Part shown: one piece after another, positions 2,274-64,000 of the stretch
Position numbering within the stretch: the first letter of the stretch is position 1
How the letters are laid out: each line of letters starts with the position of its first letter
NCBI GenBank assembly: GCA_964458315.1
Contig: CAYWIK010000005.1
Location: 4,122 to 68,121 of the forward strand
DNA: 64,000 nt
Direction: 5' to 3'
Source: an uncultured Spirochaetales bacterium
GTDB lineage: Bacteria; Spirochaetota; Spirochaetia; SPDA01; CAZSGZ01
Notes under the pieces: model-generated
Told to the model about the DNA's origin: nothing
What the model saw: the letters and a program-made list of their open reading frames with translations, nothing else
Databases searched by the model: none
Translations under genes and position numbers: made by a program

Positions 2274-3416
2274 ATGCAAATTGTCCCTATTGCCAGCGGC
2301 AAAGGGGGGGTCGGTAAATCGTTGTTGGCGGCCAATATTTCTCTGGCACTGGCGCAGGCCGGGAAACGGGTCATTGTTGCCGATCTGGATTTAGGCGGCT
2401 CAAACCTGCATCTCATCTTAGGGATAATGGGAATAAAGAAAGGGATCGGCACCTTTCTAAACGATTCTTCTATGGATTTTCAGGAAATTGTCCTGGATAC
2501 GGAATATAAAAATCTCAAATTTATCCCCGGGGATACGGAAATTCCCGGGGCGGCAAACCTAAAAACGTTTCAGAAGAAGAAACTCCTCCGAAGGTTGTTG
2601 GCTCTTGACGCGGACTACCTGATCATGGACCTCGGTGCGGGAACCAATTTCAATACGATTGATTTTTTTCTCATTTCCGGAAACGGAATTGTCGTGACTG
2701 CACCAACGCCGACTGCGAATCTCAACGCGTATCTTTTTATTAAAAATGTTGTGTTCCGGATTATGCATTCTTCATTTAAAAAAGATTCGAAAGCCCAGGA
2801 GTATATAAATTCACTTCTCAAAAGCGGTACGACCTTTCAGCAGATTTATATGCCGAAACTTTTAACGGCTATCAGCGAACGCGATCCTGAGAGCTATGCT
2901 CAGTTTCAGAAAAAAGCTTCCTCCTTTCAACCAAGGCTCGTACTCAATCTTCTCGATGACCCAAAGGACGCGAACAAGGCAAAACGGCTCAGTCGGTCAT
3001 GTAAGGAGTATTTGGGAGTGGATATGGAACATTTAGGGATTATTTATCGTGACGAGCTTCAGGACGTGGCCCTCCAGAGCAGGCTGCCGATCATTCTGTA
3101 TAAACCGGATACCGTGCTTTCGCAGGCGATTTACCGAATCGCGGACAAGCTGGTCCAAACGGAAGAAGAAAGCCCCGGACCGGTGGATTTCGGAAATCTG
3201 GAAGAAGGTTATCAAGAGGCTGAAATCGAGGCCGAAGTCGATTTCGAAACAAAATTACGCTATATGGAAGACCTTCTCCACAGCGGAGCTCTCACTAAGG
3301 GAGACTTGGTCGAGACGATAAAGACTCAGCAGTATGAAATAAATCAGCTGCGGAAAGAAAATACATTTTTAAAGACAAAACTAGTTCGAGCAATCGAAGC
3401 CGGGTTTGACGGCTGA
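2274..3416 (+). CDS. MinD/FlhG/ParA-family P-loop ATPase with C-terminal coiled coil
   Basis: Deviant Walker A SGKGGVGKS, ADLDLGGSNL, DLGAG; C-terminal QQYEINQLRKENTFLKTKL. Confidence 0.9.
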   Translation: MQIVPIASGKGGVGKSLLAANISLALAQAGKRVIVADLDLGGSNLHLILGIMGIKKGIGTFLNDSSMDFQEIVLDTEYKNLKFIPGDTEIPGAANLKTFQKKKLLRRLLALDADYLIMDLGAGTNFNTIDFFLISGNGIVVTAPTPTANLNAYLFIKNVVFRIMHSSFKKDSKAQEYINSLLKSGTTFQQIYMPKLLTAISERDPESYAQFQKKASSFQPRLVLNLLDDPKDANKAKRLSRSCKEYLGVDMEHLGIIYRDELQDVALQSRLPIILYKPDTVLSQAIYRIADKLVQTEEESPGPVDFGNLEEGYQEAEIEAEVDFETKLRYMEDLLHSGALTKGDLVETIKTQQYEINQLRKENTFLKTKLVRAIEAGFDG

Positions 3417-8225: not shown

Positions 8226-8585
8226 ATGAAGGTATGTATCACAGCAAAAGGAAAAGAGCCGACATCGGAAGTGGACCCGCGTTTCGGCCGGGCCCAGTAT
8301 TTCGTGTTTGCCGATACCGAGACGGACGATTTTGAAGCAGTGGAAAACCCGGCGGTCAGCGCTCCGGGCGGGGCGGGGGTCCAGGCGGGTCAGCTAGTCT
8401 CGGAGCGCGGCGTTAAGACGGTACTAACCGGCAATGTAGGGCCGAATGCGTTTCAGGTCTTAGACGCCGCCGGTATACGGATTGTCACCGGCGTCGGCGG
8501 AACCGTTGAAAAGGCGAAAAAAGATTTTATCGACGGTATTTACGACGGCAAAGAGACCTCTGGCCCCACGGTCAAGGGAAAATGA
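8226..8585 (+). CDS. NifB/NifX-family (COG1433, Orange protein-like) metal-cluster-binding protein
   Basis: VDPRFGRAQYF, GGAGVQAGQ, VLTGNVGPNAF. Confidence 0.9.
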   Translation: MKVCITAKGKEPTSEVDPRFGRAQYFVFADTETDDFEAVENPAVSAPGGAGVQAGQLVSERGVKTVLTGNVGPNAFQVLDAAGIRIVTGVGGTVEKAKKDFIDGIYDGKETSGPTVKGK

Positions 8586-9436
8586 GAATTGCCGTTGCAA
8601 GCGGCAAGGGAGGGACCGGAAAAACCACCCTTGCCGTCAATCTCGCCCTCTCACTCGATGGTGAAGTCTGTCTTGCGGACTGCGATGTCGAGGAGCCGAA
8701 CGACCACCTTTTTATTCAGGTACCGGTGGAGGGCGAGAAAGCCGTTCATGTACAGATACCGGTTATAAACGAAGAGCGCTGCACGGCGTGCGGAAGGTGC
8801 GTGGACATTTGCGAGTTCAACGCTCTTGCCGTGATCGGCGGCCAAGTGCTGGTATTCGAACAGCTTTGCCACGGATGCGGAGGCTGCAGCCGTTTCTGCC
8901 CCGAGAAAGCGATTACTGAACGGGAACGGGAAATCGGAACCGTATTGTGGGGCAGGCAGGAAAACCTGCATTTTATTTACGGTCGACTCAATATTGGAGA
9001 GGCACTCGCTCCCCCGGTCATTCGTGCAGTTCAGCATCGTATTCCGAAAACCGGAACGATCATCATCGACAGCCCTCCGGGTACGACCTGCTCCATGGTG
9101 CAGGCAGTGGCGGACTCCGATTACTGCATTCTGGTTGCCGAGAATACCCCCTTCGGGCTCCATGACGCGAAAATTGCGATACAGGCGGTGGCCAACCTCG
9201 ATGTTCCCCTCGGCGTGGTGATCAACCGGTACGATACCGGAGCAAGCGGTCTTGAAGCATTTCTCGAATCGGAAAAAATTCCCGTACTCATGCGGATTCC
9301 CTTTAATGAAGAAATTGCCAGGCTCTACTCAAGGGGTATTCCCTTTGTAACGGAACTAACTGAATACCGCCGTAAACTGATTGATCTTGCGGAACAGGTA
9401 GGAAAAGAAGTTTCGGTAAGCAGGGGGAGCCGATGA
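8582..9436 (+). CDS. MinD-like P-loop ATPase with inserted 2x[4Fe-4S] ferredoxin (COG1149), copy 1
   Basis: SGKGGTGKT, DCDVEEPN, CTACGRCVDIC, CHGCGGCSRFC, DSPPGTTC. Confidence 0.92.
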   Translation: MRIAVASGKGGTGKTTLAVNLALSLDGEVCLADCDVEEPNDHLFIQVPVEGEKAVHVQIPVINEERCTACGRCVDICEFNALAVIGGQVLVFEQLCHGCGGCSRFCPEKAITEREREIGTVLWGRQENLHFIYGRLNIGEALAPPVIRAVQHRIPKTGTIIIDSPPGTTCSMVQAVADSDYCILVAENTPFGLHDAKIAIQAVANLDVPLGVVINRYDTGASGLEAFLESEKIPVLMRIPFNEEIARLYSRGIPFVTELTEYRRKLIDLAEQVGKEVSVSRGSR

Positions 9437-10347
9437 AACAGATCGTTGTATTCAGCGGAAAAGGAGGGACCGGAAAAACGTCTATAACCGCGTCGCTTGC
9501 GGCGCTGGCGCAAAACGCACTTTATGCGGATTGTGATGTAGATGCTTCGAACCTGCACATAATCCTTCATCCGGACATTGAGGAAACTCATTCTTTTATG
9601 GGACCAAAATGCGCGGAAATCATACAGGAGCGCTGCACCCGGTGTCTCGAGTGCATTGAGGCATGCAGGTACGATGCGATTTCCGAAGAAAACGGCGTGG
9701 TTATGGTAAATCCCTTTCTCTGCGAAGGGTGCGGAGTCTGTTATCACCTTTGTCCGGTTGACGCCGTTTCCTTTGAGCAGCGGGAAGCCGGAGAATGGTA
9801 TGCAGGGGAAACAAAGTACGGTCCAATGGTGTACGCGGAGCTATTCCCGGGAGAGGAGAATTCGGGAAAACTGGTAACCGAAGTCAGAAAAAAAGTGAAA
9901 CAGCTCGGTGAGGATATGAAAAAGGATTGGTGTATCATCGACGGCCCGCCGGGAACAGGGTGCGCCGTTATGGCATCTATTACAGGCGCCGATGCCGCGG
10001 TCCTGGTCACCGAACCCACGGTATCCGGTATTCATGATATGAGGCGGGCCCTGGAACTTGCTGCGTTCTTTTCAATTCCAACCGGCGTAGTGATCAATAA
10101 GAGCAGCATCAACCCTGAGCAGACCGACTCAATTAGGAAAGAATGTGAAAATAAGGATATACCTGTCCTTGGCGAAATTCCCTATTCCCGGCTGGTCATC
10201 GATTCGGTTTCGGAATGTATTCCCTATGTAGAGTTTCGAGATGATGACATCAGCCGGTCTTTGCGGAATATATGGGAAAATTGTAGACTTATGACAAAAA
10301 CAGATGGAGAAGCAAAAGATGAGCGGACAGACGAAAGAACAAACTGA
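9433..10347 (+). CDS. MinD-like P-loop ATPase with inserted 2x[4Fe-4S] ferredoxin (COG1149), copy 2
   Basis: SGKGGTGKT, DCDVDASN, CTRCLECIEAC, CEGCGVCYHLC, DGPPGTGC. Confidence 0.92.
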   Translation: MKQIVVFSGKGGTGKTSITASLAALAQNALYADCDVDASNLHIILHPDIEETHSFMGPKCAEIIQERCTRCLECIEACRYDAISEENGVVMVNPFLCEGCGVCYHLCPVDAVSFEQREAGEWYAGETKYGPMVYAELFPGEENSGKLVTEVRKKVKQLGEDMKKDWCIIDGPPGTGCAVMASITGADAAVLVTEPTVSGIHDMRRALELAAFFSIPTGVVINKSSINPEQTDSIRKECENKDIPVLGEIPYSRLVIDSVSECIPYVEFRDDDISRSLRNIWENCRLMTKTDGEAKDERTDERTN

Positions 10348-11137
10348 AGAGCAGGACAAACGGTTAGAACGGAATATGAGCGGAATCAAGCACAAACTCA
10401 TCGTCATGAGCGGAAAGGGGGGAGTCGGAAAATCCACCGTTGCCGTCAATTTGGCCCTCGGGTTGGCGATGGATGGATTCCGCGTTGGTGTTCTCGATGT
10501 GGATATTCACGGACCGAATATCGCTAAAATGCTCGGTATCGAGGACCGGCATCTTGTATCGGACGGCGAATACATCGAACCGATCGAGGTGTTCCCCGGC
10601 CTCACGGCGGTGAGCCTTGCCCTCGCCGGGTACGGGAATGATACGCCGATTATTTGGCGAGGCCCCCTCAAGATGGGAGCGATCAAGCAGTTTTTATCCG
10701 ATGTCCGATGGTCTGAACTCGACTATCTCATAATCGACAGCCCTCCGGGGACGGGAGATGAGCCGCTGAGTGTATGTCAGCTGATCCCGGGTATGGACGG
10801 TGCGGTGATCGTGACCACCCCCCAGGATGTGGCCCTTCTCGATTCGAGAAAAAGCGTCAACTTTGCAAAGCAGCTCAATATTCCAGTTATCGGAGTGGTG
10901 GAAAATATGAGCGGCTTGGCCTGTCCGCACTGCGGCAAAGATATCGAGCTTTTCGGCCGAGGCGGCGGAGAGCGTACCGCGGGGGAGATGCAGGTGCCTT
11001 TTTTGGGAAGCGTACCCATCGACCCGGAAGTGGTGAAGTCGGGAGACGCGGGAAAGCCCTTCATCGCCAGCCGTAACGGGAACGCCGTCACCGAGGCGAT
11101 ACGGCAGATCGTGAAAAAAATAACCGCTGCGGAATGA
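10319..11137 (+). CDS. mrp: Mrp/NBP35 (ApbC) Fe-S cluster carrier ATPase
   Basis: SGKGGVGKS, DIHGPN, IIWRGP, DSPPGTGD, ENMSGLACPHC; start 10319 has a GGAG SD. Confidence 0.93.
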   Translation: MSGQTKEQTEEQDKRLERNMSGIKHKLIVMSGKGGVGKSTVAVNLALGLAMDGFRVGVLDVDIHGPNIAKMLGIEDRHLVSDGEYIEPIEVFPGLTAVSLALAGYGNDTPIIWRGPLKMGAIKQFLSDVRWSELDYLIIDSPPGTGDEPLSVCQLIPGMDGAVIVTTPQDVALLDSRKSVNFAKQLNIPVIGVVENMSGLACPHCGKDIELFGRGGGERTAGEMQVPFLGSVPIDPEVVKSGDAGKPFIASRNGNAVTEAIRQIVKKITAAE

Positions 11138-11159
11138 AAGTCCGGCGGAATATGTAACT

Positions 11160-12047
11160 ATGAAAACATGTTTGCAATGTATTCCCTGTTTTTTCAGGCA
11201 GGCCCTCGAGGCCGCCGAGTTGAACGGACTGGGAGAAGAAACACAGAGAAAAATAGTTAATACCCTCGCGGGACAGATACCGTCTTTCAAACTCGACCAT
11301 TCACCGGTCGAAATGGCCGGGTATCTCCACCGGCTGGTGCGGGAAGAAATTGACGGAAAGGACCCTTATGCCCGCATAAAAAGGGAAAGTAATAAAAAGG
11401 CGCTTACGTTGTATCCCCGGGCTAAAGAGGAGATTCAAAAGAGCGAAACACCTCTCCTGCGGGCGATTCAGTTCGCGGCGGCTGGGAATATAATCGATTT
11501 CGGCGTAAAGGGCAAAATCAATATCGAAGACGAACTCAACCGGATCCTGGAAATGGAGGAAAAGATTATTTCCAAGGAAGACCGGGACCTATTCGATTAT
11601 GAGGGCTTTTCAAAAAGACTTGCCGTAAGCAAAACCATGCTCTACATAGGAGACAATGCCGGAGAAATTGTGTTCGATAAACTGCTTATCGAGGAAATAG
11701 ATCGGTTATATCCGGACCTGCATATCTATTTTGCCGTGCGGGGCGGACCAATTATCAACGATGTGACGGAGAAAGATGCCAAAGAATGCGGAATTGATAA
11801 AATCGCAACGGTAATTTCCAGCGGTGCGGATATTCCCGGTATAATTCTGCCGCAGTCGAGCCAAGAATTCGTCCGCCTTTTCTTTACGAGCGACCTGGTC
11901 TTAAGTAAAGGACAGGGCAATTTTGAATCCCTTTCCTCGGAAAAGAGGCTTATATATTTTTTATTCATCGCAAAATGCGCGGTCATTGCGGATCATGTCA
12001 ATGCCGATATCGGAGCCGTTCTTCTCTTGAATAATTCTCTTGAATAA
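11160..12047 (+). CDS. DUF89/ARMT1-like damage-control metal-dependent phosphatase
   Basis: N-terminal CxxCxxC, DPY..K, AGNIIDFG, GDNAGE, INDVT, SKGQGNFE. Confidence 0.9.
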   Translation: MKTCLQCIPCFFRQALEAAELNGLGEETQRKIVNTLAGQIPSFKLDHSPVEMAGYLHRLVREEIDGKDPYARIKRESNKKALTLYPRAKEEIQKSETPLLRAIQFAAAGNIIDFGVKGKINIEDELNRILEMEEKIISKEDRDLFDYEGFSKRLAVSKTMLYIGDNAGEIVFDKLLIEEIDRLYPDLHIYFAVRGGPIINDVTEKDAKECGIDKIATVISSGADIPGIILPQSSQEFVRLFFTSDLVLSKGQGNFESLSSEKRLIYFLFIAKCAVIADHVNADIGAVLLLNNSLE

Positions 12048-26641: not shown

Positions 26642-28240
26642 ATGAAGAAATATATTTTCGTGACCGGCGGTGTCTGTTCGAGCCTTGGAAAGGGAATCGC
26701 GGCAGCCTCGATTGGATGTCTTCTCGAAGCCCGGGGTTTAAATATCAGGATGATTAAGATCGATCCTTATATCAACGTTGATGCCGGGACCATGAGTCCC
26801 TATCAGCATGGAGAAGTGTACGTAACCGATGACGGGGCTGAGACGGACCTCGATCTCGGCAACTATGAACGGTTTACTTCCGGGCGGTTGAGTCAAGAAA
26901 ACTCGATTACCACCGGACAGGTATACGAATCGGTGATCAAAAAGGAACGGGAAGGGCGTTATCTCGGCCGGACCGTACAGGTCATCCCGCATATTACCGA
27001 TGAAATAAAGCGGCGTATCTTTAAAATCGGCCAGGAAGAAGGAACGGACGTTACCATTATTGAGATCGGCGGAACCGTGGGCGACATCGAGTCGGTACCG
27101 TTTCTCGAAGCTGCCAGGCAATGTATTCACGACTTAGAAAGAAAGAATGTTCTTTTCGTCCATCTCACCCTCGTCCCGACTGTTGCGGGGGGGGAGCTGA
27201 AAACGAAACCGACCCAGCATTCGGTTAAAGCTCTTCGGGAAATCGGAATACAGCCGGACATCCTTCTGTGCCGTGCCCCCTATCTGCTGGAAGATGCGAT
27301 GCGGAAGAAGATTGCACTCTTTACCAATGTAGAGGAAGAAGCGGTCATTTCGGCCTACGACATCAAGACGTCGATCTATGAAATTCCCCTTATGTATCAC
27401 GGTCAATGCTTGGATAAGATTGTAGTGGAACGCCTCGGCATCAAAAACGGCAGGGCGGACCTCAATGCCTGGAAGGAGGTGGTGAACACCTACAACCGGG
27501 CGGAGAAAGTGGTGCGGGTCGCATTGGTGGGGAAATATGTGGAACTGAACGATACGTATAAATCGATCCATGAGTCACTCATTCACGGCGGATTGGCGAA
27601 TAAGGTAAAGACGGAAATCGTATATATCGATTCCGAAAAACTCGAAAAGGAGGAGAGCCGGGAATCCTTGTTCGAGGGAATTGACGGTATTCTTGTTCCC
27701 GGGGGATTCGGCCAACGGGGAATTGAAGGAATGGTATGCGTCGCGGAGCTTGCCCGTACGAAAAAGATTCCTTATTTCGGTATCTGTCTCGGGCTTCAGG
27801 TGATGGTAATCGAGTATGCCCGCAATGTTTTAGGGTTAGAGCATGCTAATAGTACCGAGTTCGCTCCCGAAGGCCCTCATCCGGTAATAAGCCTTTTAGA
27901 AGAGCAAATCGATGTAATAGCATACGGCGGAACCATGCGGCTCGGGAAATCGGAAACAAAACTTCTTGCAAACACAAAAATAATAGAGGCATACGGTTCC
28001 GAATCGATATTTGAACGTCATCGGCACCGGTATGAGGTTTCCAACGTATACAGAGACTCCCTTTCCCAGGCCGGACTTATCATCGGCGGTGTAACGCCTG
28101 ACAACGCGTTGGTGGAATCGGTGGAGTGGCGGGACCACCCGTGGGGAATCGGAGTACAGTATCATCCCGAATTCAGGTCCAGACCTACAAACCCTCATCC
28201 TCTTTTCGTCAGTTTTATACGGGCGGGCATACACAAATGA
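26642..28240 (+). CDS. pyrG: CTP synthase
   Basis: [40 protein letters not shown]. Confidence 0.98.
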
Positions 28241-42634: not shown

Positions 42635-42721
42635 TTACATATGAATCATTGCTTTGATAACGCTGTCTTTGTACCCGTCTACCAGTTCGAAAGCATACTG
42701 GACTTCCGCCGCCTTCATCAT
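42635..42721 (-). pseudogene. 28-codon ORF resembling the extreme C-terminus of a Zn-dependent (MDR) dehydrogenase
   Basis: Hand-translated MMKAAEVQYAFELVDGYKDSVIKAMIHM*; GGAGG upstream; ATG overlaps the stop of the FAD oxidoreductase. Confidence 0.5.
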
Positions 42722-44397
42722 TTCCGCTCCTCCTTCATATCTTCGGTGAACAGTACCCCCGGGCTGAAGAGCCCCTGCGGGTCCAGGGCCGCCTTTATTG
42801 CATGCATCTCTTCGAGCTCTTCCGGGGTGAACTGCAGGTGCATAAACTTCCGTTTAAGCCGCCCGATGCCGTGTTCGGCGCTGACGCTTCCGCCCCGTTC
42901 AACCACGGACCGGGCGAACTGTCCGTACAGCTTCCAGGCGGATTCCTGTTCTTTTAGGTTCTTCGGCAGGATATTAACGTGGAGATGCCCGTTCCCGATG
43001 TGCCCGAACATGCAGTATTCCAGCCCTGCACCCTCGAGTACCCGGCGGTATTCCGCAAGCTGTTCCGGGAAGGCATGATCGGGTACCGACATATCGGTGC
43101 CGATTTTTGTAAGTTCCGGTATCGAATTTTTGCGCATGCCGATAATGGAATTGATCCGCTCCGGGAGGGCGTGACGGAATTTTTTCATCGCCGTGAGATC
43201 GTGGTGGGAAAATCCGGCCCAGGTGTACTCCGCCGGTATTCCCTTTTCTTCAAGGATTTTTTGGATTTCCGATGAAATTGTAAGGAACTGTTCCTGTCGT
43301 TCGAAACCGATTTCCACATACAGAACCGCTCGGGCCGGTTCCGGAAGCTGCGGTACCCCGCTTGCCTCCCCCTGTTCCCTGCGGAATTCCTTCAAGAGGC
43401 TTAATGAATTTTCATCCATGTACTCAACAGCTGCGGGAGAAAAGCTTTCGGCGTTTTTAAGGCGCCGTACCGTTTCCTCCGGCGTATCTTCCGGGAGAAA
43501 TATGCAGAGATAGAGGGTTTTGGCGGGAGGGGAGATACATTTGAGCTCGAGCTCGGTAATGATGCCGAGACTCCCTTCGCTTCCGATAAAGAGGTCGACC
43601 GGTTCTGCGAATTCGGTCAGGTAATAACCGGCAGCGTGTTTCGTCGGAGGGATTGCGACCGGGCGGAAGGAAACCGTTTTTGATACGGGAGCGGGAAGCT
43701 CAATGGACCTCAGGGCCGTTTTGCTGTTGTTTTCCGCCCCGCCGCCGGTACCGATTTCTTCGGCGGCCCGGGTTTCGGGTTCCCTTTTTAGCTTGACGAC
43801 CTTTCCGTCTGCAAGAACCGCCGTCAGGCCGAGTACCCAGTCCCGCATCGGGCCGTACAAGAGGGTGCGGGCACCCGAAGCATTGGTAGCCGCCATGCCG
43901 CCGAGGGTGGCCGTGGTTTCCGTCGGATCGACGGGGAAAAAGAGCTCCCCTTCCGGCGGCTTCGCTTTTTCAGTCAGCTTGCCTTTATCGGACCCTTTGC
44001 CGCAGATAGAACCGAGGACCGGAAACCGTTTCTGCCTGAGGGTTTCCAGAAGCTCCTGTAAGGTGACCCCGGCGCCCACATGGAGGGCCCAGCATCCGAA
44101 CTCATCGTCGTACCGCAATCCGAAGACGGATTTCAGTGCCTCGATGGAAAGGAGGGCGCCGGCCTTTTGCGGCACCGCGCCGCCGACGATCCCCGTCCTG
44201 CCGCCGGAGACGGTAATCGGCAGCCCGTCGGCGGCGCACTCCGCGACTGCTTCCGCGACTTCACGGGTCGAGGCGGTAAGGTAGAGGCGTTTTGGAACTT
44301 CCGGGTCGAGTTTCGATTCGTCGAGCAGAATCTGGCGGTAGCTTTCTTCGATTTTTTTCTTATCCGTAATAACTTTTCCTGAATATGCCTTTTTCAT
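42718..44397 (-). CDS. FAD-binding oxidoreductase, D-lactate/glycolate (GlcD/LctD) family
   Basis: SGGRTGIVGGAVP, PVDPTE, GGMAATNASG, FIGSEGSLG, FGHIGNGHLHVN, SAEHGIG. Confidence 0.9.
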   Translation of the reverse strand: MKKAYSGKVITDKKKIEESYRQILLDESKLDPEVPKRLYLTASTREVAEAVAECAADGLPITVSGGRTGIVGGAVPQKAGALLSIEALKSVFGLRYDDEFGCWALHVGAGVTLQELLETLRQKRFPVLGSICGKGSDKGKLTEKAKPPEGELFFPVDPTETTATLGGMAATNASGARTLLYGPMRDWVLGLTAVLADGKVVKLKREPETRAAEEIGTGGGAENNSKTALRSIELPAPVSKTVSFRPVAIPPTKHAAGYYLTEFAEPVDLFIGSEGSLGIITELELKCISPPAKTLYLCIFLPEDTPEETVRRLKNAESFSPAAVEYMDENSLSLLKEFRREQGEASGVPQLPEPARAVLYVEIGFERQEQFLTISSEIQKILEEKGIPAEYTWAGFSHHDLTAMKKFRHALPERINSIIGMRKNSIPELTKIGTDMSVPDHAFPEQLAEYRRVLEGAGLEYCMFGHIGNGHLHVNILPKNLKEQESAWKLYGQFARSVVERGGSVSAEHGIGRLKRKFMHLQFTPEELEEMHAIKAALDPQGLFSPGVLFTEDMKEERK

Positions 44398-44409
44398 GGA
44401 TCTACCTTA

Positions 44410-46293
44410 TTAATATCCATCCTTCCCGTGGAGCTCCATCAAATTGCGCAGCAGGACCGAGTAGTCGGCCGCAAACCCGTAATCCGCCGCCTTGAAAATC
44501 GGCGCGTCCGGGTCCTTGTTGACCGCGATGACCGTTTCGGCATCGTGCATTCCTACCAGATGCTGCACCGCGCCCGAAATCCCGCAGGCGAAATAGACCG
44601 CCGGCTGGACCGTTTTCCCGGTCTGGCCGACCTGTTGGGGATAAGGAATCCAGCCGGCTTCAACGGCGCTTCTCGAAGCGCCGACTGCGCCGCCTACCAT
44701 GGCGGCGAACCGTTCGAGCAGCTCGAAGCCGGCTCTACCCCCCAGGCCCCGGCCGCCGGAGATGATGATTCGGGCATTTGCAATGTCCGATTTTCCGCGG
44801 ATTGTCCGTTTTCGTTCGAGGACCCTGACCGGCGGGGCCGTTCCCCCGCGGCCGGCCGAAGCGCAGGGAGTGACCGAAGCGCGCGGTTTGGCGTTTCCGG
44901 CGGCCCCGTCTTCGATCGGCTTCAGCACATGAGGGCGGGCGGTCGCCATTTGGGGCCGCCGGTCCGGACAGGTAATGGTTGCCATGATATTTCCCCCAAA
45001 GGCCGGCCGCGTCTGGAGGAGAAGACCGGTTTTATCGTCGATATCGAAACGGGTACAATCGGCAGTAAGTCCGGTCTCGAGCCGGGAGGCTACGAGGGGC
45101 ATATAAGCCCTGCCTCCTAATGTTGCGGGCCCGAGGACAAACGCCGGATCGATTTCTCTTAGAGCTTCCGCTAACACCTCTGCGAGAACGTTTACTTCAC
45201 CGGCGAACTCCGGTTCTATTTCGGCATAGCAGACCGTGCTTACACCCGGAAATGCGGCGGATTGGAGGACCTCCCGTAAGTGCGGTCCGGCAAAGAGAAG
45301 GGTAACCGCGGTCCCTGCTTTCTCAGATAGCCTTCGGGTTTCTCCCAGCAGTTCGAAGGTTACGGAGCGGATGCTCTTTTCTTCAGGGTCGATCTCTCCG
45401 ATAACCGCTGCTTTGCGGTGTTGAGATTCGTCGGATACAGCTGCATCGGGACCCGGTGCGGCCGGGGAAGCAGCGGCTGCAGGTGAATCGTTGGCCCTAG
45501 CCCGCGGACGGTCCGTTTCTTTTTTTCTCAGCAATTCGAGGACCATGCGCAGGTCTTCTTCCCGGTCCGGATCAAGAAACCGGACCTTTTTGTCGTGGGA
45601 CACTGGAACGATTTTTTTTACCCTCGTGGGGGAACCGGACAGTCCGACGCCGCCCTTTTGGAAACCAAGTTCTTGGTTGGTAAAAAAAGAAAGTTCCTCG
45701 GCAAACGCCTTCTCCCATCCCGGAAGGGTTATGAGCCGGGGCGTATTAATGTCTTTGACCACCGCGCATACCGCGGGAAGAGAAGCTTCAAGAATAAAAT
45801 GACCGGTATCGGTCATCGATTCAACCTGCAGTGTGCTCCTTTCCGTTTTGTTGATTTTAAAAACATAGGGAAGAAAGGGTATTCCGAGACGGACCGCCAG
45901 CTCCGCGGGAACTTGGGCCGTATCTCCGTCGATCGCTTGCTTTCCGCACAAAATTATATCCGGATCGCCGATTTTTCGCACAGCCTCGGCAAGTGTCACT
46001 GCCGTGGCCCATGTATCCGCGCCTGCAAACATCTTGTCCGAACAGAGAAAACCGCGGTCCGCACCCATTGCCAGTGCTTCGCGCAGAGAATGTTCGACTT
46101 GTTTCGGGCCCATGGAGAGGACCGATACCTCCCCGCCATACCGTTCCCGAAGGCGAATTCCTTCTTCTACAGCGTTACAGTCGAGAGGATTGATTATGCT
46201 TTCCACCCCTTCCCGATTCAGGGTCCCTGTTTCCGGGTCCACCGTGAGTTCCGCCGTATCCGGCACTTGTTTTATACAAACGATAATCTTCAT
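44410..46293 (-). CDS. Fused electron transfer flavoprotein beta-alpha (EtfB-EtfA)
   Basis: N-half KQVPD, GKQAIDGDTAQV, PRLITL; Ala/Pro linker; C-half GLTADCT, RPAFGGN, RPQMAT, SGGRG, QVGQTG, GISGAVQH, INKD-like VNKDPDAPIF. Confidence 0.93.
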   Translation of the reverse strand: MKIIVCIKQVPDTAELTVDPETGTLNREGVESIINPLDCNAVEEGIRLRERYGGEVSVLSMGPKQVEHSLREALAMGADRGFLCSDKMFAGADTWATAVTLAEAVRKIGDPDIILCGKQAIDGDTAQVPAELAVRLGIPFLPYVFKINKTERSTLQVESMTDTGHFILEASLPAVCAVVKDINTPRLITLPGWEKAFAEELSFFTNQELGFQKGGVGLSGSPTRVKKIVPVSHDKKVRFLDPDREEDLRMVLELLRKKETDRPRARANDSPAAAASPAAPGPDAAVSDESQHRKAAVIGEIDPEEKSIRSVTFELLGETRRLSEKAGTAVTLLFAGPHLREVLQSAAFPGVSTVCYAEIEPEFAGEVNVLAEVLAEALREIDPAFVLGPATLGGRAYMPLVASRLETGLTADCTRFDIDDKTGLLLQTRPAFGGNIMATITCPDRRPQMATARPHVLKPIEDGAAGNAKPRASVTPCASAGRGGTAPPVRVLERKRTIRGKSDIANARIIISGGRGLGGRAGFELLERFAAMVGGAVGASRSAVEAGWIPYPQQVGQTGKTVQPAVYFACGISGAVQHLVGMHDAETVIAVNKDPDAPIFKAADYGFAADYSVLLRNLMELHGKDGY

Positions 46294-49604: not shown

Positions 49605-49633
49605 GTGACAGAAGTCAAATTTTATTTTACTAT
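49605..49633 (+). promoter_or_regulatory. sigma70 promoter of the cysD operon (GTGACA-N17-TACTAT), 11 nt before the ATG
   Basis: Read directly; no SD. Confidence 0.6.
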
Positions 49634-49644
49634 CGAAATCCGTT

Positions 49645-50526
49645 ATGGATCACCTGGAATATTTAGAGAATATTAGTGTTAGAATTCTGAGGGAAGCATA
49701 CGCGAATTTCAAAAATCTGGGTATGCTTTGGTCTATCGGTAAAGACAGTACCGTTCTTTTATGGCTTGCCAGAAAGGCATTTTTCGGTCATGTCCCGATT
49801 CCTCTTATCCACATCGATACAAGTTTTAAAATTCCCGAAATGATAGAATACAGAGATCGTCTCACGAAAGAGTGGGGGTTGACCATGATTTACGGACAGA
49901 ACCGCGCCGCCATAGAAGAAAAAAACACCTTTCCCGACGGGAATACGGACCGCCTCTCCTGCTGCCGCCTGTTGAAAACCGAAGCCCTGCGCAATACCCT
50001 TGCAGGCACCTGGGACCGCTACCGGTTCAACCATAAAACCGGGCGATACGAGGTGGACAAAAACCGGGAACCCTTTACCGGGATTATTGCCGGCGTTCGG
50101 GCGGACGAGGAGGGGTCCAGGTCCAAGGAGCGTTATTTTTCTCCCAGAGACAAGGAAAACGAGTGGGACGTAGACGACCAGCCGCCTGAGTTTTGGAACC
50201 AGTTCAAGACCGATTTCGCGCCCGGCACCCACCTCCGGATCCATCCACTTCTCGATTGGACGGAACTCAACATCTGGGAATATATCGAACGGGAAAAAAT
50301 CCCTACGGTAAGCTTGTACTACAATCAAGGAAACGGAAAACGGTATCGTTCCCTGGGCTGTGCGCCATGTACTTTTCCGATCGATTCGTCTTCCGGAAAC
50401 GTTGCTGAGATTGTCGAAGAGCTTTCTACCGGAAACCTTTCCAATATAGCGGAGCGTTCGGGCCGGGCACAGGACAAAGAGGACGGCGGCGGTCTGGAAA
50501 CTTTACGCAGAGACGGGTATATGTAA
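49645..50526 (+). CDS. cysD: Sulfate adenylyltransferase subunit 2
   Basis: [46 protein letters not shown]. Confidence 0.95.
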
Positions 50527-52328
50527 TGGTTTCGAAAGACCGCAAACAGATGAATATTGTCATTGCCGGTCATGTGGACCATGGAAAGAGCACCGTCATC
50601 GGCCGGCTTTTAGCGGACACCGGCAGCCTGCCGGAGGGAAAGCTGGAGCAGATCAAACATCAGTGTGAAATCAACTCTAAACCCTTCGAGTATGCTTTTC
50701 TGTTAGACGCCCTCAAGCACGAACAGGCACAGGGAATTACCATCGACAGCGCCCGGGTGTTTTTCCATACGAAGGCGCGGGATTATATCATTATCGACGC
50801 GCCGGGCCATATCGAATTCCTTAAAAATATGGTAAGCGGGGCGGCCCGGGCGGAAGCGGCCTTTTTGGTAATCGACGCGGAAGAGGGAATTCAGGAGAAT
50901 TCACGGCGCCACGGCTATATGCTTACCATGCTCGGGATCAAGCAGATCTGTGTGCTGGTCAACAAGATGGATTTGGTCGAATACAACAAGGTCACCTTTA
51001 AAAAGATAACGAGAAAATTTTCCCGTTTTCTTCGAAATGTGGAGATCTTCGACGTGACCTTTATTCCGGTAAGCGGCGTCGAAGGGACTAATATCAATAC
51101 GTTAAGCGATATTACCGACTGGTATGAAGGGCCGACGGTAGTCGAGCAGCTCGATATTTTTGAAAAAGAGCCCGACCGAAACGAACGGGCGTTCCGAATG
51201 CCGGTCCAGGACGTGTATAAATTCACTCGTTACGGCGACAGCCGGAGAATCATCGCCGGAACGGTAGATTCAGGCACTCTCCGGGTGGGCGACGATGTGG
51301 TATTTTATCCGTCGGGCAAGCGGAGTAAAGTGAAGAGCATCGAATCTTTTAATACGGAGCAAAAACTTCAGGTTTCCGCGGGGCACGCTGCGGGTTTCAC
51401 ATTGGAGGAACAGATTTACGTCACTCGGGGGCAGATTGCGGTACGCGCGGACGAGCTCAAGCCGAAGGTGGCTTCGGTGGTCCGGGTAAACCTATTCTGG
51501 CTCGGCCGCCGGCCGGTGACTATGAAAAAAGAATATATATTCAAGATTGGAACGGTTCGCGTTCAGGCACGGGTAGAGGAAATTGTGCGGGTCATCGATG
51601 CATCTACCCTCGATGCCAAAGCCGTTAAAGAAGTGATAGAGCTTCATGATGTGGCCGAATGCATTCTCCGTCTCGGCAAACCGATTGCTTTCGACTTGGT
51701 CGACAACATTCCTCAAACCAGCCGGTTCGTCATTGTAGACGACTATGAAATCCGCGGCGGCGGAATTATACGGGAACCCATAGAAGATATCCAGTCCTTT
51801 GCCAGACGGAATATTTTAGTCCGAAATTACAACTGGGAACCGAGTCATATACCGCCGAAAAAACGCGCCTCCAGGTACAGTCAGCGGCCCACCCTTATCC
51901 TCATTACCGGACAGGAGAGTGACGCGAAGAGAGGAATCGCCGAACAGCTCGAAGAACAGCTTTTCGCGGAGGGGAAATTGGTGTATGCCATCGGTATCGG
52001 GAACATTCTTTCCGGGATCAGCGCCGATGTTACCGAAGAGAAAGGCGGCCGGACCGAACAAATCAGACGGCTCGCCGAGGTGGCCCATCTTTTTTTAGAC
52101 GCGGGAATGATTCTTATCGTGACGGCGGTGGAACTTACCCAGGACGACCTGGACCTGATCCGGTTTTCAATTACTCCGGACAGGATCGAGACCGTCTGGG
52201 TAGGCGATCAAGTAACGACGGACCTCACCTTTGACCTGCAGGTGACCAACAACGTGGTTTTAGAAGAGGCGATTACCGGCGTCAAGGAGCTTTTGATTAA
52301 AAACCGCATCATCTTTCAACCTTTGTAA
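50526..52328 (+). CDS. cysN: Sulfate adenylyltransferase GTPase subunit with degenerate C-terminal APS-kinase-like domain
   Basis: GHVDHGKS, GITID, DAPGH, NKMD; C-terminal CysC-like fold lacking the P-loop. Confidence 0.93.
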   Translation: MVSKDRKQMNIVIAGHVDHGKSTVIGRLLADTGSLPEGKLEQIKHQCEINSKPFEYAFLLDALKHEQAQGITIDSARVFFHTKARDYIIIDAPGHIEFLKNMVSGAARAEAAFLVIDAEEGIQENSRRHGYMLTMLGIKQICVLVNKMDLVEYNKVTFKKITRKFSRFLRNVEIFDVTFIPVSGVEGTNINTLSDITDWYEGPTVVEQLDIFEKEPDRNERAFRMPVQDVYKFTRYGDSRRIIAGTVDSGTLRVGDDVVFYPSGKRSKVKSIESFNTEQKLQVSAGHAAGFTLEEQIYVTRGQIAVRADELKPKVASVVRVNLFWLGRRPVTMKKEYIFKIGTVRVQARVEEIVRVIDASTLDAKAVKEVIELHDVAECILRLGKPIAFDLVDNIPQTSRFVIVDDYEIRGGGIIREPIEDIQSFARRNILVRNYNWEPSHIPPKKRASRYSQRPTLILITGQESDAKRGIAEQLEEQLFAEGKLVYAIGIGNILSGISADVTEEKGGRTEQIRRLAEVAHLFLDAGMILIVTAVELTQDDLDLIRFSITPDRIETVWVGDQVTTDLTFDLQVTNNVVLEEAITGVKELLIKNRIIFQPL

Positions 52329-52341
52329 GGAGTTAATCAAT

Positions 52342-53622
52342 ATGAATACGGAATATACACTCCGATGTACATCCTGCGGAAAAAGCATAAGCGACGAAGA
52401 ATTACCCCTCCAATGCGATTGCGGGACTCCGGCTCTGCTGCGGGCGGAATACGAAAAAAAACAACTGAATCCCGGCCCCGACGCTTTAGGCCTGTATAAG
52501 TTTGCCGATTGGCTTCCCATCCGGCGGACCCTCGAAGGTTCAGCCCCGCCGATTACCTATAAGAGCGACGGACTGGCAAAACGGCTCGGGTTTTCGAACC
52601 TGTATATAACCTTCAACGGTTACTGGCCCGAGCGGGACTGCGGGATGAAAACGGGGACGTTTAAAGAGTGCGAGGCCTTTTCCGTATGCGCGAGGATGCC
52701 GGAGGGGTTTGAAAAGACCCTGGTGGTTGCATCAGCGGGGAATACGGCGCGCGCCTTTGCACGGGTCTGTTCCGCCAACCGTATTCCCTTGGTGGTCGTG
52801 GTACCGGAGACGAGCCTGGATGCAATGTGGTTCGACGAAGATATCGACTCTTGCGTGCGGCTGATTGCCGCCGGGGGAGGCAGCGATTATTTCGATGCAA
52901 TTTATCTGTCCAATTTGATTTGCGGTATCGACGGATATGTGCCCGAGGGGGGCGCTAAGAATATCGCCCGCCGCGACGGTATGGGGACCACGGTCTTGAG
53001 CGCCGCCGTTGAAATTGGCGAGGTGCCTGAGTATTATTTTCAGGCCGTAGGAAGCGGTACCGGCGCGATTGCCGCATGGGAAGCCAACCGTAGGCTCCTT
53101 GCGGACGGACGGTTCGGCGAAAATAAAATGAAGCTTATGGTCTCTCAGAACGCGCCGTTTCTGCTTCTTTTCGACAGCTGGAAACGGAAGATGAGGGAGT
53201 TGGTTGAACTCGATCTTGCAACCGCTTCAAAACAAATCGAGGAAATCAAAGCGAAGGTCCTCTCCAACCGGAAACCGCCCTATAGTCTGACCGGCGGATT
53301 GTACGATGCCCTTGTGGACGTCGAAGGAGATGTGCTTGCGGCCACCAACTTGGAATCGGACGAAGCGCGGCAGCTTTTCTTAGAAACCGAAGGGATTGAT
53401 ATTACCCCGGCCGCGGGTGTAGCATTGGCAAGCCTTATTCAGGCTTCGAAAACGGGCTTAGTAAAAAAAGAGGCGCTGGTAATGCTCAATATTACCGGCG
53501 GCGGAGTGGAGCGATTTAAATTGGAGAGACCGACCCGCTATCTCGAACCCTCTACCGTCATTCCCCGGGAGGATATCGTGCGGGAAAATCTCAATGCGAT
53601 AACAAAAGCATTAGGCGAGTAA
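52342..53622 (+). CDS. Cysteate synthase (threonine-synthase-like, PLP)
   Basis: N-terminal CxxC, DWLP, FNGYWPER, TGTFKECEA (PLP Lys), ASAGNTARAF, EGGAKNIARRDGMGT, YFQAVGSGTG, LSNRKPPY, LNITGGG. Confidence 0.9.
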   Translation: MNTEYTLRCTSCGKSISDEELPLQCDCGTPALLRAEYEKKQLNPGPDALGLYKFADWLPIRRTLEGSAPPITYKSDGLAKRLGFSNLYITFNGYWPERDCGMKTGTFKECEAFSVCARMPEGFEKTLVVASAGNTARAFARVCSANRIPLVVVVPETSLDAMWFDEDIDSCVRLIAAGGGSDYFDAIYLSNLICGIDGYVPEGGAKNIARRDGMGTTVLSAAVEIGEVPEYYFQAVGSGTGAIAAWEANRRLLADGRFGENKMKLMVSQNAPFLLLFDSWKRKMRELVELDLATASKQIEEIKAKVLSNRKPPYSLTGGLYDALVDVEGDVLAATNLESDEARQLFLETEGIDITPAAGVALASLIQASKTGLVKKEALVMLNITGGGVERFKLERPTRYLEPSTVIPREDIVRENLNAITKALGE

Positions 53623-53634
53623 AGGAGTTGTAAA

Positions 53635-54912
53635 ATGGACCTGTTTGATAAATGTAAAACGGATGAAGGATATTTCGGAAAATTGCGCGCCATGGGAGAT
53701 AATTACTTTACCATGCCGGTTATAGACGATAAGCCGGGCAGAATCATGGAATACGACGGCGAAAAAAAATTGATGTGGTCCGTCAATAATTATCTCGGTT
53801 TGGCGGATAACGAGGAGATAAAAAAAAGCGCCTTAGAAACCGTGGAGGAGTGGAGCGTTTCCGCGCCCATGGGATCGAGGATGATGAGCGGAAACACGAG
53901 CGAACATATCGCTTTGGAAAATCAGCTGGCAGAGTTCGCCAAAAAAGAAGCTTCCATTCTGTTTAATTACGGATATCTCGGGGTTTTAGGGACTATTTCC
54001 TCCCTCGCGGGACAGGATGACATGATCATTATGGATAAGCTTGCGCACGCATCGATCGTGGACGGTGTCCTTTTGTCCCGCGCCCCTTTTCGGGTTTTTA
54101 AGCACAACGACATGGAAAGTCTCGAAATTGTGCTCAAACGGGTGAATAAGGAACGGAAAGGCGGCGTGCTCATTGTAATCGAAGGGACTTACGGAATGAC
54201 CGGCGATCTCGCAAAACTTAAAGAAATCTGCGAATTGAAAGAAAAATACGACGCACGGCTTTTTGTCGACGATGCCCACGGGTTCGGGGTTCTCGGGGAG
54301 CAAGGCCGGGGCGCTCCCGATCATTTCGGCGTGCAGGACAAGGTCGATATATATTTCGGCACTTTCGCCAAGTCCTTCGCCTCTATCGGCGGGTTCTCCG
54401 CCGCGCGGAAGGACGTGGTGCAGTGGATACGCTATAATGCCAGGACCCAGGTGTTTGCCAAGAGCCTGCCCATGGTGTACGTAAAATCCCTGCGGAAAGC
54501 GCTTGAACTGGTAAAAAACGGAGATAAAAGGCGCGAGCACATGTGGAAAATCTCGAATGTCCTGAAAAAAGGACTTTCGGAGCTTGGTTACTATATCGGA
54601 AAGGGAGAGAGCCCCATCTGCGCGGTGTTTGCTCCTATCGGAAGCGAGAATGTTGAAACCGTGGGCGCCAGGCTGGTTAAATATTTGCGGCACGAGAAGA
54701 ATATATTCACCACCGCGGTCATCTACCCGGTTATTCCCCTCGGACTTTTAATGTTCCGGATCATCCCGACCACGGCCCACACCGAGGAAGACGTGGATAC
54801 TACGGTTAAAGCGTTTAAGGACATGCGGGACGAGATGAAGCTCGACTTGAAGATGGACGAAAAGGACCGGAAGAATATCGATAAAATCTACGGTATTAGG
54901 AGCGCCGATTAA
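53635..54912 (+). CDS. Alpha-oxoamine synthase family enzyme, cysteate-C-fatty-acyltransferase (SulA/CapB)-like
   Basis: NNYLGLA, PMGSRMMSG, LFNYGYLG, DKLAHASIVDG, VDDAHGFG, YFGTFAKS (PLP Lys), RTQVFAKSLPM. Confidence 0.8.
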   Translation: MDLFDKCKTDEGYFGKLRAMGDNYFTMPVIDDKPGRIMEYDGEKKLMWSVNNYLGLADNEEIKKSALETVEEWSVSAPMGSRMMSGNTSEHIALENQLAEFAKKEASILFNYGYLGVLGTISSLAGQDDMIIMDKLAHASIVDGVLLSRAPFRVFKHNDMESLEIVLKRVNKERKGGVLIVIEGTYGMTGDLAKLKEICELKEKYDARLFVDDAHGFGVLGEQGRGAPDHFGVQDKVDIYFGTFAKSFASIGGFSAARKDVVQWIRYNARTQVFAKSLPMVYVKSLRKALELVKNGDKRREHMWKISNVLKKGLSELGYYIGKGESPICAVFAPIGSENVETVGARLVKYLRHEKNIFTTAVIYPVIPLGLLMFRIIPTTAHTEEDVDTTVKAFKDMRDEMKLDLKMDEKDRKNIDKIYGIRSAD

Positions 54913-63406: not shown

Positions 63407-63435
63407 ATGGTAGTAGGAAACGATCAAAGAGGCAA
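63407..63435 (-). promoter_or_regulatory. sigma70 promoter of pdp (TTGCCT-N17-TACCAT), 8 nt before the ATG
   Basis: Read directly; the -35 lies inside the 3' end of intI. Confidence 0.7.
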
Positions 63436-64000
63436 GCCGTTATCCGCCAGGCGGTCGAAGGGGCTTTCTACGCCAAGCTTGTTTTTTCGAGCTACGTGGG
63501 TATAAATCATCGTGGTCTGCAGGCTGGAATGCCCTAAGAGCTCCTGGACGGTCCTGATGTCGTATCCATGTTCGATAAGATGGGTCGCGAAGCTGTGCCG
63601 CAGGGTGTGTACGGATGCGTTCTTGGTAAGCCCAGCTGCTTGGACGGCCTTGTGGAACGCCTTCTGAAGTGATGAGTGATAGATGTGATGGCGCCGCACG
63701 ATTTTTTCCGCCGGGTCGATGGACAATTTCGGGGACGGGAATACCCAGAACCATTTCCAGCTTTCGGGCGATTTCGGATATTTTCTTCGTAGGGCAGCCG
63801 GTATCGAAACGCCTGCAATGCCGTTTCGACGGTCTTCTTCAAACCGGCTTCGGACCCGGCGCATCTGCTCCTGAAGCGGTTTTATGAGTCCTTCGGGGAG
63901 CAGGGTTTCCCGGTCTTTGTCCCCTTTCCCCGAACGGACCACAATACTGTTCCTTTCAAAATCGATGTCTTTTATCCGGAGATTGAGACATTCCCTGAGT
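63424..64000 (-). mobile_element. intI: Integron integrase (IntI), 5' part outside the window
   Basis: Frame is open to the edge ([14 protein letters not shown]...GKGDKDR); IntI-specific insert ALRRKYP...W.WFWVFPS..LS.DP; [23 protein letters not shown]. Confidence 0.92.

Follow-up and report, generated by a model that had tools for sequence, protein, structure and literature searches.

A probable cysteate-C-fatty acyltransferase of a spirochaete-type branch, encoded in a predicted cysteate-supplying operon of an uncultured Spirochaetales bacterium

In a 64,000-nucleotide stretch of DNA from an uncultured Spirochaetales bacterium (contig CAYWIK010000005.1; the whole stretch is referred to as the window), the last of four tightly packed genes encodes an alpha-oxoamine synthase (AOS) that belongs, by sequence, to the cysteate acyltransferases of the SulA/CapB/CFAT type. 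The preferred reading, which is given a probability of roughly 0.8, is that this open reading frame (ORF) specifies a cysteate-C-fatty acyltransferase (CFAT) which starts sulfonolipid synthesis, that it closes a cysteate-supplying operon, and that it represents an old, spirochaete-type branch of the enzyme which was inherited vertically, without recent import. The DNA stems from a diderm member of the Spirochaetales found in microbial mats. The best 80 genome matches of the CTP synthase PyrG encoded in the window (26642-28240) were all from Spirochaetota (66-80% identity; Marispirochaeta and Sediminispirochaeta, 70-71%); the window carries lptC-lptA-lptB-rpoN-hprK, of which the lptC-lptA-lptB block indicates a diderm; and the contig recurs in microbial-mat, stromatolite and microbialite metagenomes.

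The ORF encodes 425 amino acids from an ATG start, which is preceded by a ribosome-binding site (AAGGAG) at a distance of 7 nt. An earlier reading of this DNA from its letters alone (the sequence-only reading) had quoted four motifs for the ORF, and all four were found in it (Table 1). The Bacteroidota counterparts given in that reading are nearly letter-identical to the motifs of the solved protein 28eh (PMGARMMSG, LLNFGYQG, YFSTFAKS and KYNLRSQMFAKSLPM), the sole mismatch being AKALPM for AKSLPM. In an alignment of 112 sequences (32 of the spirochaete type, 71 from the Bacteroidota/Balneolaceae/'Chlorobi' superphylum (FCB), and outgroups comprising serine palmitoyltransferase (SPT), glycine C-acetyltransferase (KBL) and AOS paralogues), the P-M-G-x-R insertion, N-[FY]-G-Y, Q272 and A-K-S-L-P including K276 were invariant in 32/32 spirochaete-type and 71/71 FCB-type members, and they differ in SPT, KBL and the AOS paralogues. 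Judged by this alignment, the quoted motifs are family signatures and no chance matches.

When the acyltransferase was compared by phmmer with all PDB sequences, the top two matches were 28eh, annotated 'Cysteate-C-fatty acyltransferase' (362.6 bits), and SulA (7u7h; 360.5 bits), followed by the SPT of Sphingobacterium (3a2b; 242.9 bits) and KBL (215.6 bits); the lead of the cysteate acyltransferases is thus ∼120-150 bits. Pfam PF00155 was matched, as befits a fold-type I AOS enzyme dependent on pyridoxal phosphate (PLP). No cysteate acyltransferase model was among the matches of the NCBIfam scan, and the models for the related enzymes were all missed: those for SPT (NF047600, NF047599 and NF047603) with 307.7, 303.6 and 220.1 bits versus cut-offs of 640, 500 and 670, respectively, those for KBL (NF005394 and TIGR01822) with 316.6 versus 460 and 250.7 versus 493, and that for BioF (TIGR00858) with 301.3 versus 426.45. 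In neighbor-joining (NJ) trees, the family was split from SPT, KBL and BioF in 100/100 bootstraps, and in 60/60 when a homologue from Legionella (see below) was included.

The residues that matter in SulA are conserved. The Schiff-base lysine is K246 in GTFAKS (nt 54370-54372), which aligns with Lys251 of SulA; N51, H138 and R375 are the equivalents of Asn53, His140 and Arg376, which completes the catalytic set. K276 in FAKSLPM (nt 54460-54462) occupies the position of SulA Lys281. Radka et al found this lysine, which is alanine in SPT, to be essential for catalysis and proposed it as a discriminator of sulfonolipid from sphingolipid condensing enzymes; the docked sulfonate in SulA sits between Lys251 and Lys281′ (PMC9304779). 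The lysine is present in 103/103 family members of the alignment, and the position is occupied by alanine in SPT, asparagine in KBL and threonine in the paralogues. The AlphaFold (AF2) model of the acyltransferase (pLDDT 89.6) retrieved chains of 7u7h as its best Foldseek matches. AOS structures were matched at TM-scores of 0.85-0.9 and, as all of them score similarly, the model confirms the fold but adds little beyond the sequence to the distinction of SulA from SPT. As to the model and residue check that had been proposed along with the motifs, the top structural match is SulA, and both lysines flanking the sulfonate are there. PDB scores, missed cut-offs, the 100% bootstrap split, K276 and the cysteate synthase gene upstream all argue for the cysteate-acyltransferase type over SPT, KBL or BioF, as the sequence-only reading had claimed. 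The observation named beforehand as speaking against it, placement with SPT or KBL without sulfonate-binding residues, was not made; best matches and tree alike lie with the cysteate acyltransferases.

Table 1. Features of the acyltransferase locus and of the related Legionella cluster. Positions refer to the window unless an accession is given.
Feature	Position	Strand	Basis or remark
Promoter candidate, sigma-70-like, GTGACA-17-TACTAT	49605..49633	+	consensus match at 9/12 positions; 12 nt upstream of cysD
cysD, sulfate adenylyltransferase subunit 2	49645..50526	+	NF003587, 336.6 bits versus cut-off 195; Pfam PF01507
cysN, sulfate adenylyltransferase GTPase subunit with degenerate APS-kinase-like C-terminal domain	50526..52328	+	TIGR02034, Pfam
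Cysteate synthase (predicted: O-phospho-L-serine + sulfite to L-cysteate)	52342..53622	+	TIGR03844, 494.6 bits versus cut-off 324.9
Cysteate-C-fatty acyltransferase (SulA/CapB/CFAT-type AOS enzyme), main gene	53635..54912	+	sequence matches, NJ trees, alignment, AF2 model
Motif PMGSRMMSG	aa 78-86, nt 53866-53892	+	acyltransferase ORF
Motif LFNYGYLG	aa 109-116, nt 53959-53982	+	acyltransferase ORF
Motif YFGTFAKS	aa 240-247, nt 54352-54375	+	acyltransferase ORF
Motif RYNARTQVFAKSLPM	aa 266-280, nt 54430-54474	+	acyltransferase ORF
Two-domain VOC (glyoxalase-fold) protein, 353 aa	54909..55970	-	Pfam PF00903 and PF13669; convergent, overlaps the acyltransferase gene by 4 nt
Legionella lytica cluster (L326)	NZ_CP071528.1, 317340-322211		AOS gene, then fusion gene, then phosphosulfolactate phosphatase gene

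The acyltransferase gene is the last of four co-directional genes, preceded by cysD, cysN and the gene for cysteate synthase (Table 1). The stop codon of cysD overlaps the start of cysN (TAATG), cysN and the cysteate synthase gene are 13 nt apart, and the last two junctions measure 12-13 nt, each with an AAGGAG site. The assignment of cysteate synthase is corroborated by its match to PDB 9k3c, 'Cysteate synthase' (509.5 bits over residues 3-411). The cysN product scored 335.9 bits with TIGR02034 (CysN), just short of the cut-off of 336.1, and matched Pfam GTP_EFTU. Its C-terminal third (51800-52328 of the window) partially matched APS_kinase (profile positions 2-98 of 152; 50 bits), but carries ITGQESDAKRG at the P-loop position instead of GxxGxGK[ST], that is, no Walker A motif; the corresponding domain is similarly degenerate in another Spirochaetales locus (L236). 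The APS-kinase-like domain of CysN is, thus, probably non-catalytic or regulatory, which is consistent with direct reduction of APS; as the kinase would be inactive, APS is the expected product. The order cysD-cysN-cysteate synthase-acyltransferase recurs in three loci from metagenome-assembled genomes (MAGs) of Spirochaetales (L166, L167 and L236), the cysD of which is 81-83% identical to that of the window. A cysH of the APS reductase type (Fe-S cysteine pairs, ECGLH motif) lies 3′ of the acyltransferase gene in two of them (L166, 5404-6123; L236, 8541-9263), and Fe-S type cysH is also found within the acyltransferase clusters of nine further relatives (L013, L014, L016, L017, L021, L022, L024, L033 and L291); taken together, the relatives with such a cysH belong to two phyla. 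The Fe-S APS reductase in the clusters of relatives fits the apparently dead APS-kinase domain.

The promoter and terminator scan returned weak consensus matches only. The promoter candidate falls in the 59-nt divergent gap between a MatE gene and cysD; sigma-70-like sites were about twice as frequent in the scanned region as expected (13 versus a shuffled mean of 6.3, sd 2.3), and a consensus match is no evidence of function. In a run labeled metatranscriptomic (X16), short contigs matched the cysteate synthase gene (52329-52597) and the acyltransferase gene (53876-54140) at at least 99% identity, a weak hint of transcription of the operon in the mat, given that DNA carry-over is possible. 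In related spirochaete loci, no reductase gene was seen beside the cluster, where the neighbors are a transposase of the IS200 type, a regulator of the TetR type and genes without relation to it; a short-chain dehydrogenase/reductase (SDR) and epimerases follow downstream only in a locus labeled 'Eubacteriales' (L008). In one Spirochaetaceae MAG, the acyltransferase and VOC genes are separated by the insertion of an IS200-type (Y1) transposase (L001, 9403-9948).

From the established chemistry of SulA/CapB and of cysteate synthase, the following route can be proposed. CysD and CysN would make APS from sulfate, the C-terminal APS-kinase-like domain of CysN apparently being inactive, and an APS reductase encoded outside the window would produce sulfite. 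Cysteate synthase would then exchange the phosphate of O-phosphoserine for sulfite to yield cysteate, which would form an external aldimine with the PLP bound at K246 of the acyltransferase. Condensation with a fatty acyl thioester, likely acyl-ACP by analogy with SulA, under loss of CO2 would result in 3-ketocapnine, which is the first committed intermediate on the way to sulfonolipids of the capnine type. Unlinked enzymes are expected to reduce and N-acylate this intermediate to an outer-membrane sulfonolipid.

Convergent to the acyltransferase gene lies one for a two-domain VOC protein, the most constant neighbor of the acyltransferase in both Spirochaetota and Bacteroidales/'Chlorobi'. It adjoins the acyltransferase gene in 15/15 Spirochaetota loci for which the flank was available and in ∼14 Bacteroidales/'Chlorobi' loci; most of the remaining Bacteroidota loci do not have the two genes linked. 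Besides the window, the VOC gene was noted as a neighbor in L001, L003-L007, L010-L017, L021, L022, L024, L033, L049, L050, L065, L166, L167, L236, L246, L260, L269, L291, L295, L300 and L307. Across Spirochaetota, Bacteroidota, Balneolaceae and 'Chlorobi', the VOC proteins share 52-68% identity and, between phyla, they are better conserved than the acyltransferase (∼49-60% versus 44-47%). E234, H259 and E310 are invariant, which suggests a metal site in the C-terminal domain. The protein had no NCBIfam match and no PDB match by sequence, and its AF2 model (pLDDT 93) matched only generic two-domain folds of the glyoxalase I/PcpA/GLOD4/HPPD kind in Foldseek (TM ∼0.55 or lower). Its tree was poorly resolved, strict monophyly of the spirochaetes being recovered in 0/50 bootstraps because two outsiders intrude. 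The literature search found no paper tying a VOC/glyoxalase protein to sulfonolipids. Gene linkage flags the VOC protein as a candidate component of the pathway. On the far side of the VOC gene, five loci (L246, L252, L257, L295 and L307) carry another AOS paralogue, a distant one with 31-35% identity to the window enzyme, which points to a broader association of the VOC gene with AOS enzymes.

A relative from a cultured organism came from a tblastn search of plasmids: the 373-kb plasmid pLlyPCM2298_1 of Legionella lytica encodes an AOS homologue (WP_252582559) that shares 45-46% identity with the window protein. The diagnostic lysine is present in this homologue, the position of SulA Q117 is occupied by leucine as in the spirochaete type, and the homologue joined the spirochaete-type clade in 52/60 bootstraps. 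Its gene is followed by one for a 970-aa fusion of fatty-acyl-AMP ligase (FAAL), acyl carrier and phosphosulfolactate synthase and then by one for phosphosulfolactate phosphatase (Table 1). The gene content suggests a cluster for a sulfonated lipid, so far undescribed, in a Legionella that is in culture. The branch outside Bacteroidota is, therefore, tied to the synthesis of sulfonate precursors by two unrelated routes, and this lends support to a sulfonated amino acid as the substrate for the branch. Both clusters are linked to the synthesis of a C3 sulfonate, but Legionella would use phosphosulfolactate synthase and phosphatase (ComA/ComB type) fused to ligase and carrier where the window has cysteate synthase and CysDN; the Legionella cluster is plasmid-borne.

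Several points weigh against the reading that the ORF starts sulfonolipid synthesis in an old spirochaetal branch. SulA Q117, invariant in the Bacteroidota-type enzymes, is replaced by L or M in the spirochaete clade, and K370, likewise invariant there, mostly by L, I or M, from which it follows that acyl-donor preference, fine specificity or product could differ; how SulA itself selects cysteate was left open (PMC9304779). A tblastn search of the whole 64-kb window for cysH/APS reductase found none, a motif scan of the window ORFs for an SDR-type 3-ketocapnine reductase was equally negative, and the reductase and N-acyltransferase of the later pathway were seen neither in the window nor in the related clusters examined. 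The clade members found stem from MAGs only and carry generic annotations. MAG labels may be wrong, as some members of the clade are labeled Eubacteriales, Marinimicrobia or Bacteroidetes, and the trees are NJ trees (100 bootstraps) of homologues gathered by peptide-pattern scans, not of an unbiased maximum-likelihood sample.

One alternative keeps the enzyme in the cysteate-acyltransferase lineage but has it use another acyl donor or chain length, or a related acidic amino acid, so that the product would be a sulfonated signaling compound or secondary metabolite instead of a capnine-type membrane lipid. In its favor are the replacements near the PLP and the active-site loop, the absence of the reductase and N-acyltransferase from the cluster, the constant presence of a VOC enzyme without assigned function, and the coupling of the Legionella relative to a fatty-acyl-AMP ligase and carrier protein of its own, which is typical of secondary metabolism. 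A dedicated cysteate synthase in one operon with sulfate-activation genes, on the other hand, points to cysteate as a bulk substrate, every residue known to matter in SulA is kept, and the later genes of the pathway are unlinked in Bacteroidota as well (PMC11525784). This alternative is, therefore, considered unlikely, and a capnine-type lipid is preferred as the product.

The sequence-only reading had offered two explanations for the Bacteroidota-like motifs, that the gene was transferred from Bacteroidota or that the clade is wider than thought. The distribution of the homologues speaks for the second. Those at 62-91% identity were all from uncultured organisms, and the named ones were labeled Spirochaetota except for one Marinimicrobia; identity then dropped to 58% (MAGs labeled 'Eubacteriales') and further to 44-47% (Bacteroidota, 'Chlorobi', Balneolaceae). 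In the NJ tree, the spirochaete-type clade was supported by 100% of the bootstraps, its sister, a clade of Balneolaceae and Bacteroidota-like (FCB) sequences, by 99%, and the family as opposed to SPT, KBL and paralogues by 100%. Members of the FCB clade are 51-65% identical to each other, and the spirochaete type is 44-47% identical to every one of them. SulA and 28eh (64% identical to each other, 44-45% to the window protein) are nested in the Bacteroidota part, and the spirochaete clade equals that of Bacteroidota in internal depth. The NJ tree placed the protein with the cysteate acyltransferases and apart from SPT and KBL, as anticipated, but did not nest it in Bacteroidota: what it supports is a wider family, with a distinct spirochaete-type clade as sister to the FCB clade.

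A recent acquisition of the gene or operon from a crown Bacteroidota donor is still less likely than a deviating product. It could be invoked because the sole characterized relatives are from Bacteroidota, because the patchy distribution over phyla requires that some transfer happened, and because large plasmids of Bernardetia, Aureibacter and Legionella carry family members; moreover, the cysteate synthase is as similar to that of Bacteroidales (57-60%) as to that of other spirochaetes (48-61%), and a phage-type integrase gene (PF00589) lies ∼8.5 kb downstream of the acyltransferase gene at the end of the window (63424-64000, minus strand), continuing past it (L081, 19790-21103). Sister placement at 99-100% bootstrap and uniform identity of 44-47% contradict a nested origin. 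In five MAGs with both genes, the identities of PyrG and CFAT to those of the window were 75/73, 74/73, 70/71, 67/57 and 66/61%, respectively; the divergence of the acyltransferase tracks that of PyrG, as expected for vertical descent within Spirochaetales. The operon genes stay inside the range of the window in GC, GC3 and codon usage. No boundaries of an island were found: tRNA and Rfam scans of the window returned nothing, and there were no meaningful direct or inverted repeats around 47.5-64 kb. The tree of cysteate synthase splits all spirochaete from all Bacteroidales sequences (99%). Finally, some Bacteroidales/'Chlorobi' loci have cysN-cysD-cysH-VOC divergent from CFAT, but their cysD and cysN are only 31-36% identical to those of the window, which indicates that sulfate activation became linked separately in each lineage and that the clusters were not moved as a block. 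The proposed transfer from Bacteroidota is, therefore, unsupported as a recent or nested event, and the integrase gene is the sole hint of one; given the patchy distribution, an ancient inter-phylum transfer, in one direction or the other, probably has to be assumed.

That the enzyme is an ordinary SPT, KBL or BioF is very improbable and effectively refuted by its sequence: close relatives are named glycine C-acetyltransferase in public sources and KBL provides the top-scoring NCBIfam model, but the curated cut-offs were missed by wide margins, the cysteate acyltransferases are much nearer, K276 replaces the alanine of SPT and the asparagine of KBL, and the neighboring gene is that for cysteate synthase. 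Public records call the spirochaete relatives 'glycine C-acetyltransferase' or generic aminotransferases; the former name is probably wrong for the whole clade.

Sulfonolipids matter for gliding motility, choanoflagellate development and immune signaling in the gut. They have been described as outer-membrane lipids of Bacteroidetes (PMC9304779). As judged from the genes, the pathway to these 'Bacteroidetes' lipids is probably present in another bacterial lineage as well, and in an old one. A more far-reaching proposal can be made only tentatively: capnine-type synthesis might not be confined to FCB. Spirochaetales that live free in saline and alkaline mats and sediments might hold a second deep lineage of cysteate acyltransferases, to which the Legionella plasmid gene would be related, with self-contained operons leading from sulfate to 3-ketocapnine, and the VOC protein might be an unrecognized component of the pathway in both phyla. 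If so, the range of sulfonolipids would extend to sulfate-rich microbial mats and soda-lake sediments, and these lipids would become weaker markers of Bacteroidota. A second clade of the enzyme also helps to define what confers cysteate specificity on AOS enzymes.

Elsewhere in the window, a 627-aa fusion of EtfB-like and EtfA-like halves is encoded beside an FAD-linked oxidase of 559 aa (42718-46293, minus strand), together possibly a lactate or glycolate dehydrogenase-ETF module. A 985-aa protein of the FapA family (3441-6398, plus strand), in which four FapA_N matches are followed by a beta-solenoid domain, is unusually long for its family; the gene for a ParA/MinD-like ATPase (2274-3416) lies just 5′ of it. 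Three tandem genes for P-loop ATPases of the MinD/ParA/NUBPL type, two of them with 4Fe-4S ferredoxin inserts, precede a gene for an ARMT1-like damage-control phosphatase (8582-12047, plus strand).

The enzyme family and the pathway have been described from Bacteroidota (PMC9304779, PMC11211663, PMC11525784), and the homologues prioritized in a survey of human-gut genomes were almost all from this phylum. The literature search found no report of sulfonolipids, capnine or these genes in Spirochaetota or Legionella, and no cultured carrier was found among spirochaetes. The closest characterized counterpart is SulA of Alistipes finegoldii (7u7h; PMC9304779), a fold-type I PLP-dependent AOS enzyme with 44-45% identity over the full length and the same catalytic set and motifs; its equivalents are CapB/CFAT of Capnocytophaga, Chryseobacterium and Flavobacterium (Fjoh_2419) and PDB 28eh. 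Unlike SulA, the window enzyme falls into a separate sister clade, stems from a spirochaete and has hydrophobic residues at the positions of Q117 and K370. Its gene is in an operon with those for cysteate synthase and sulfate activation, whereas synthase and acyltransferase genes are unlinked in the Bacteroidales loci examined. SPT of Sphingobacterium multivorum (3a2b) shares the fold, the decarboxylative Claisen chemistry and ∼35% identity, but has alanine where the window enzyme has Lys276, no Met insertion in PMGxR, and GTFSKS instead of TFAKS. The cysteate synthase of the window resembles the TIGR03844/9k3c enzymes (CapA/Cys of Bacteroidota and the methanogen enzyme), scoring above the equivalog cut-off; it differs from the known ones in its translational linkage to cysDN and the acyltransferase and in lying on a spirochaete side of the tree of its own (99%). 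The enzyme family and the pathway were thus already known; what appears to be new here, on the evidence of the genes, is a clade of its own in a phylum not previously associated with them, and the layout of the operon.

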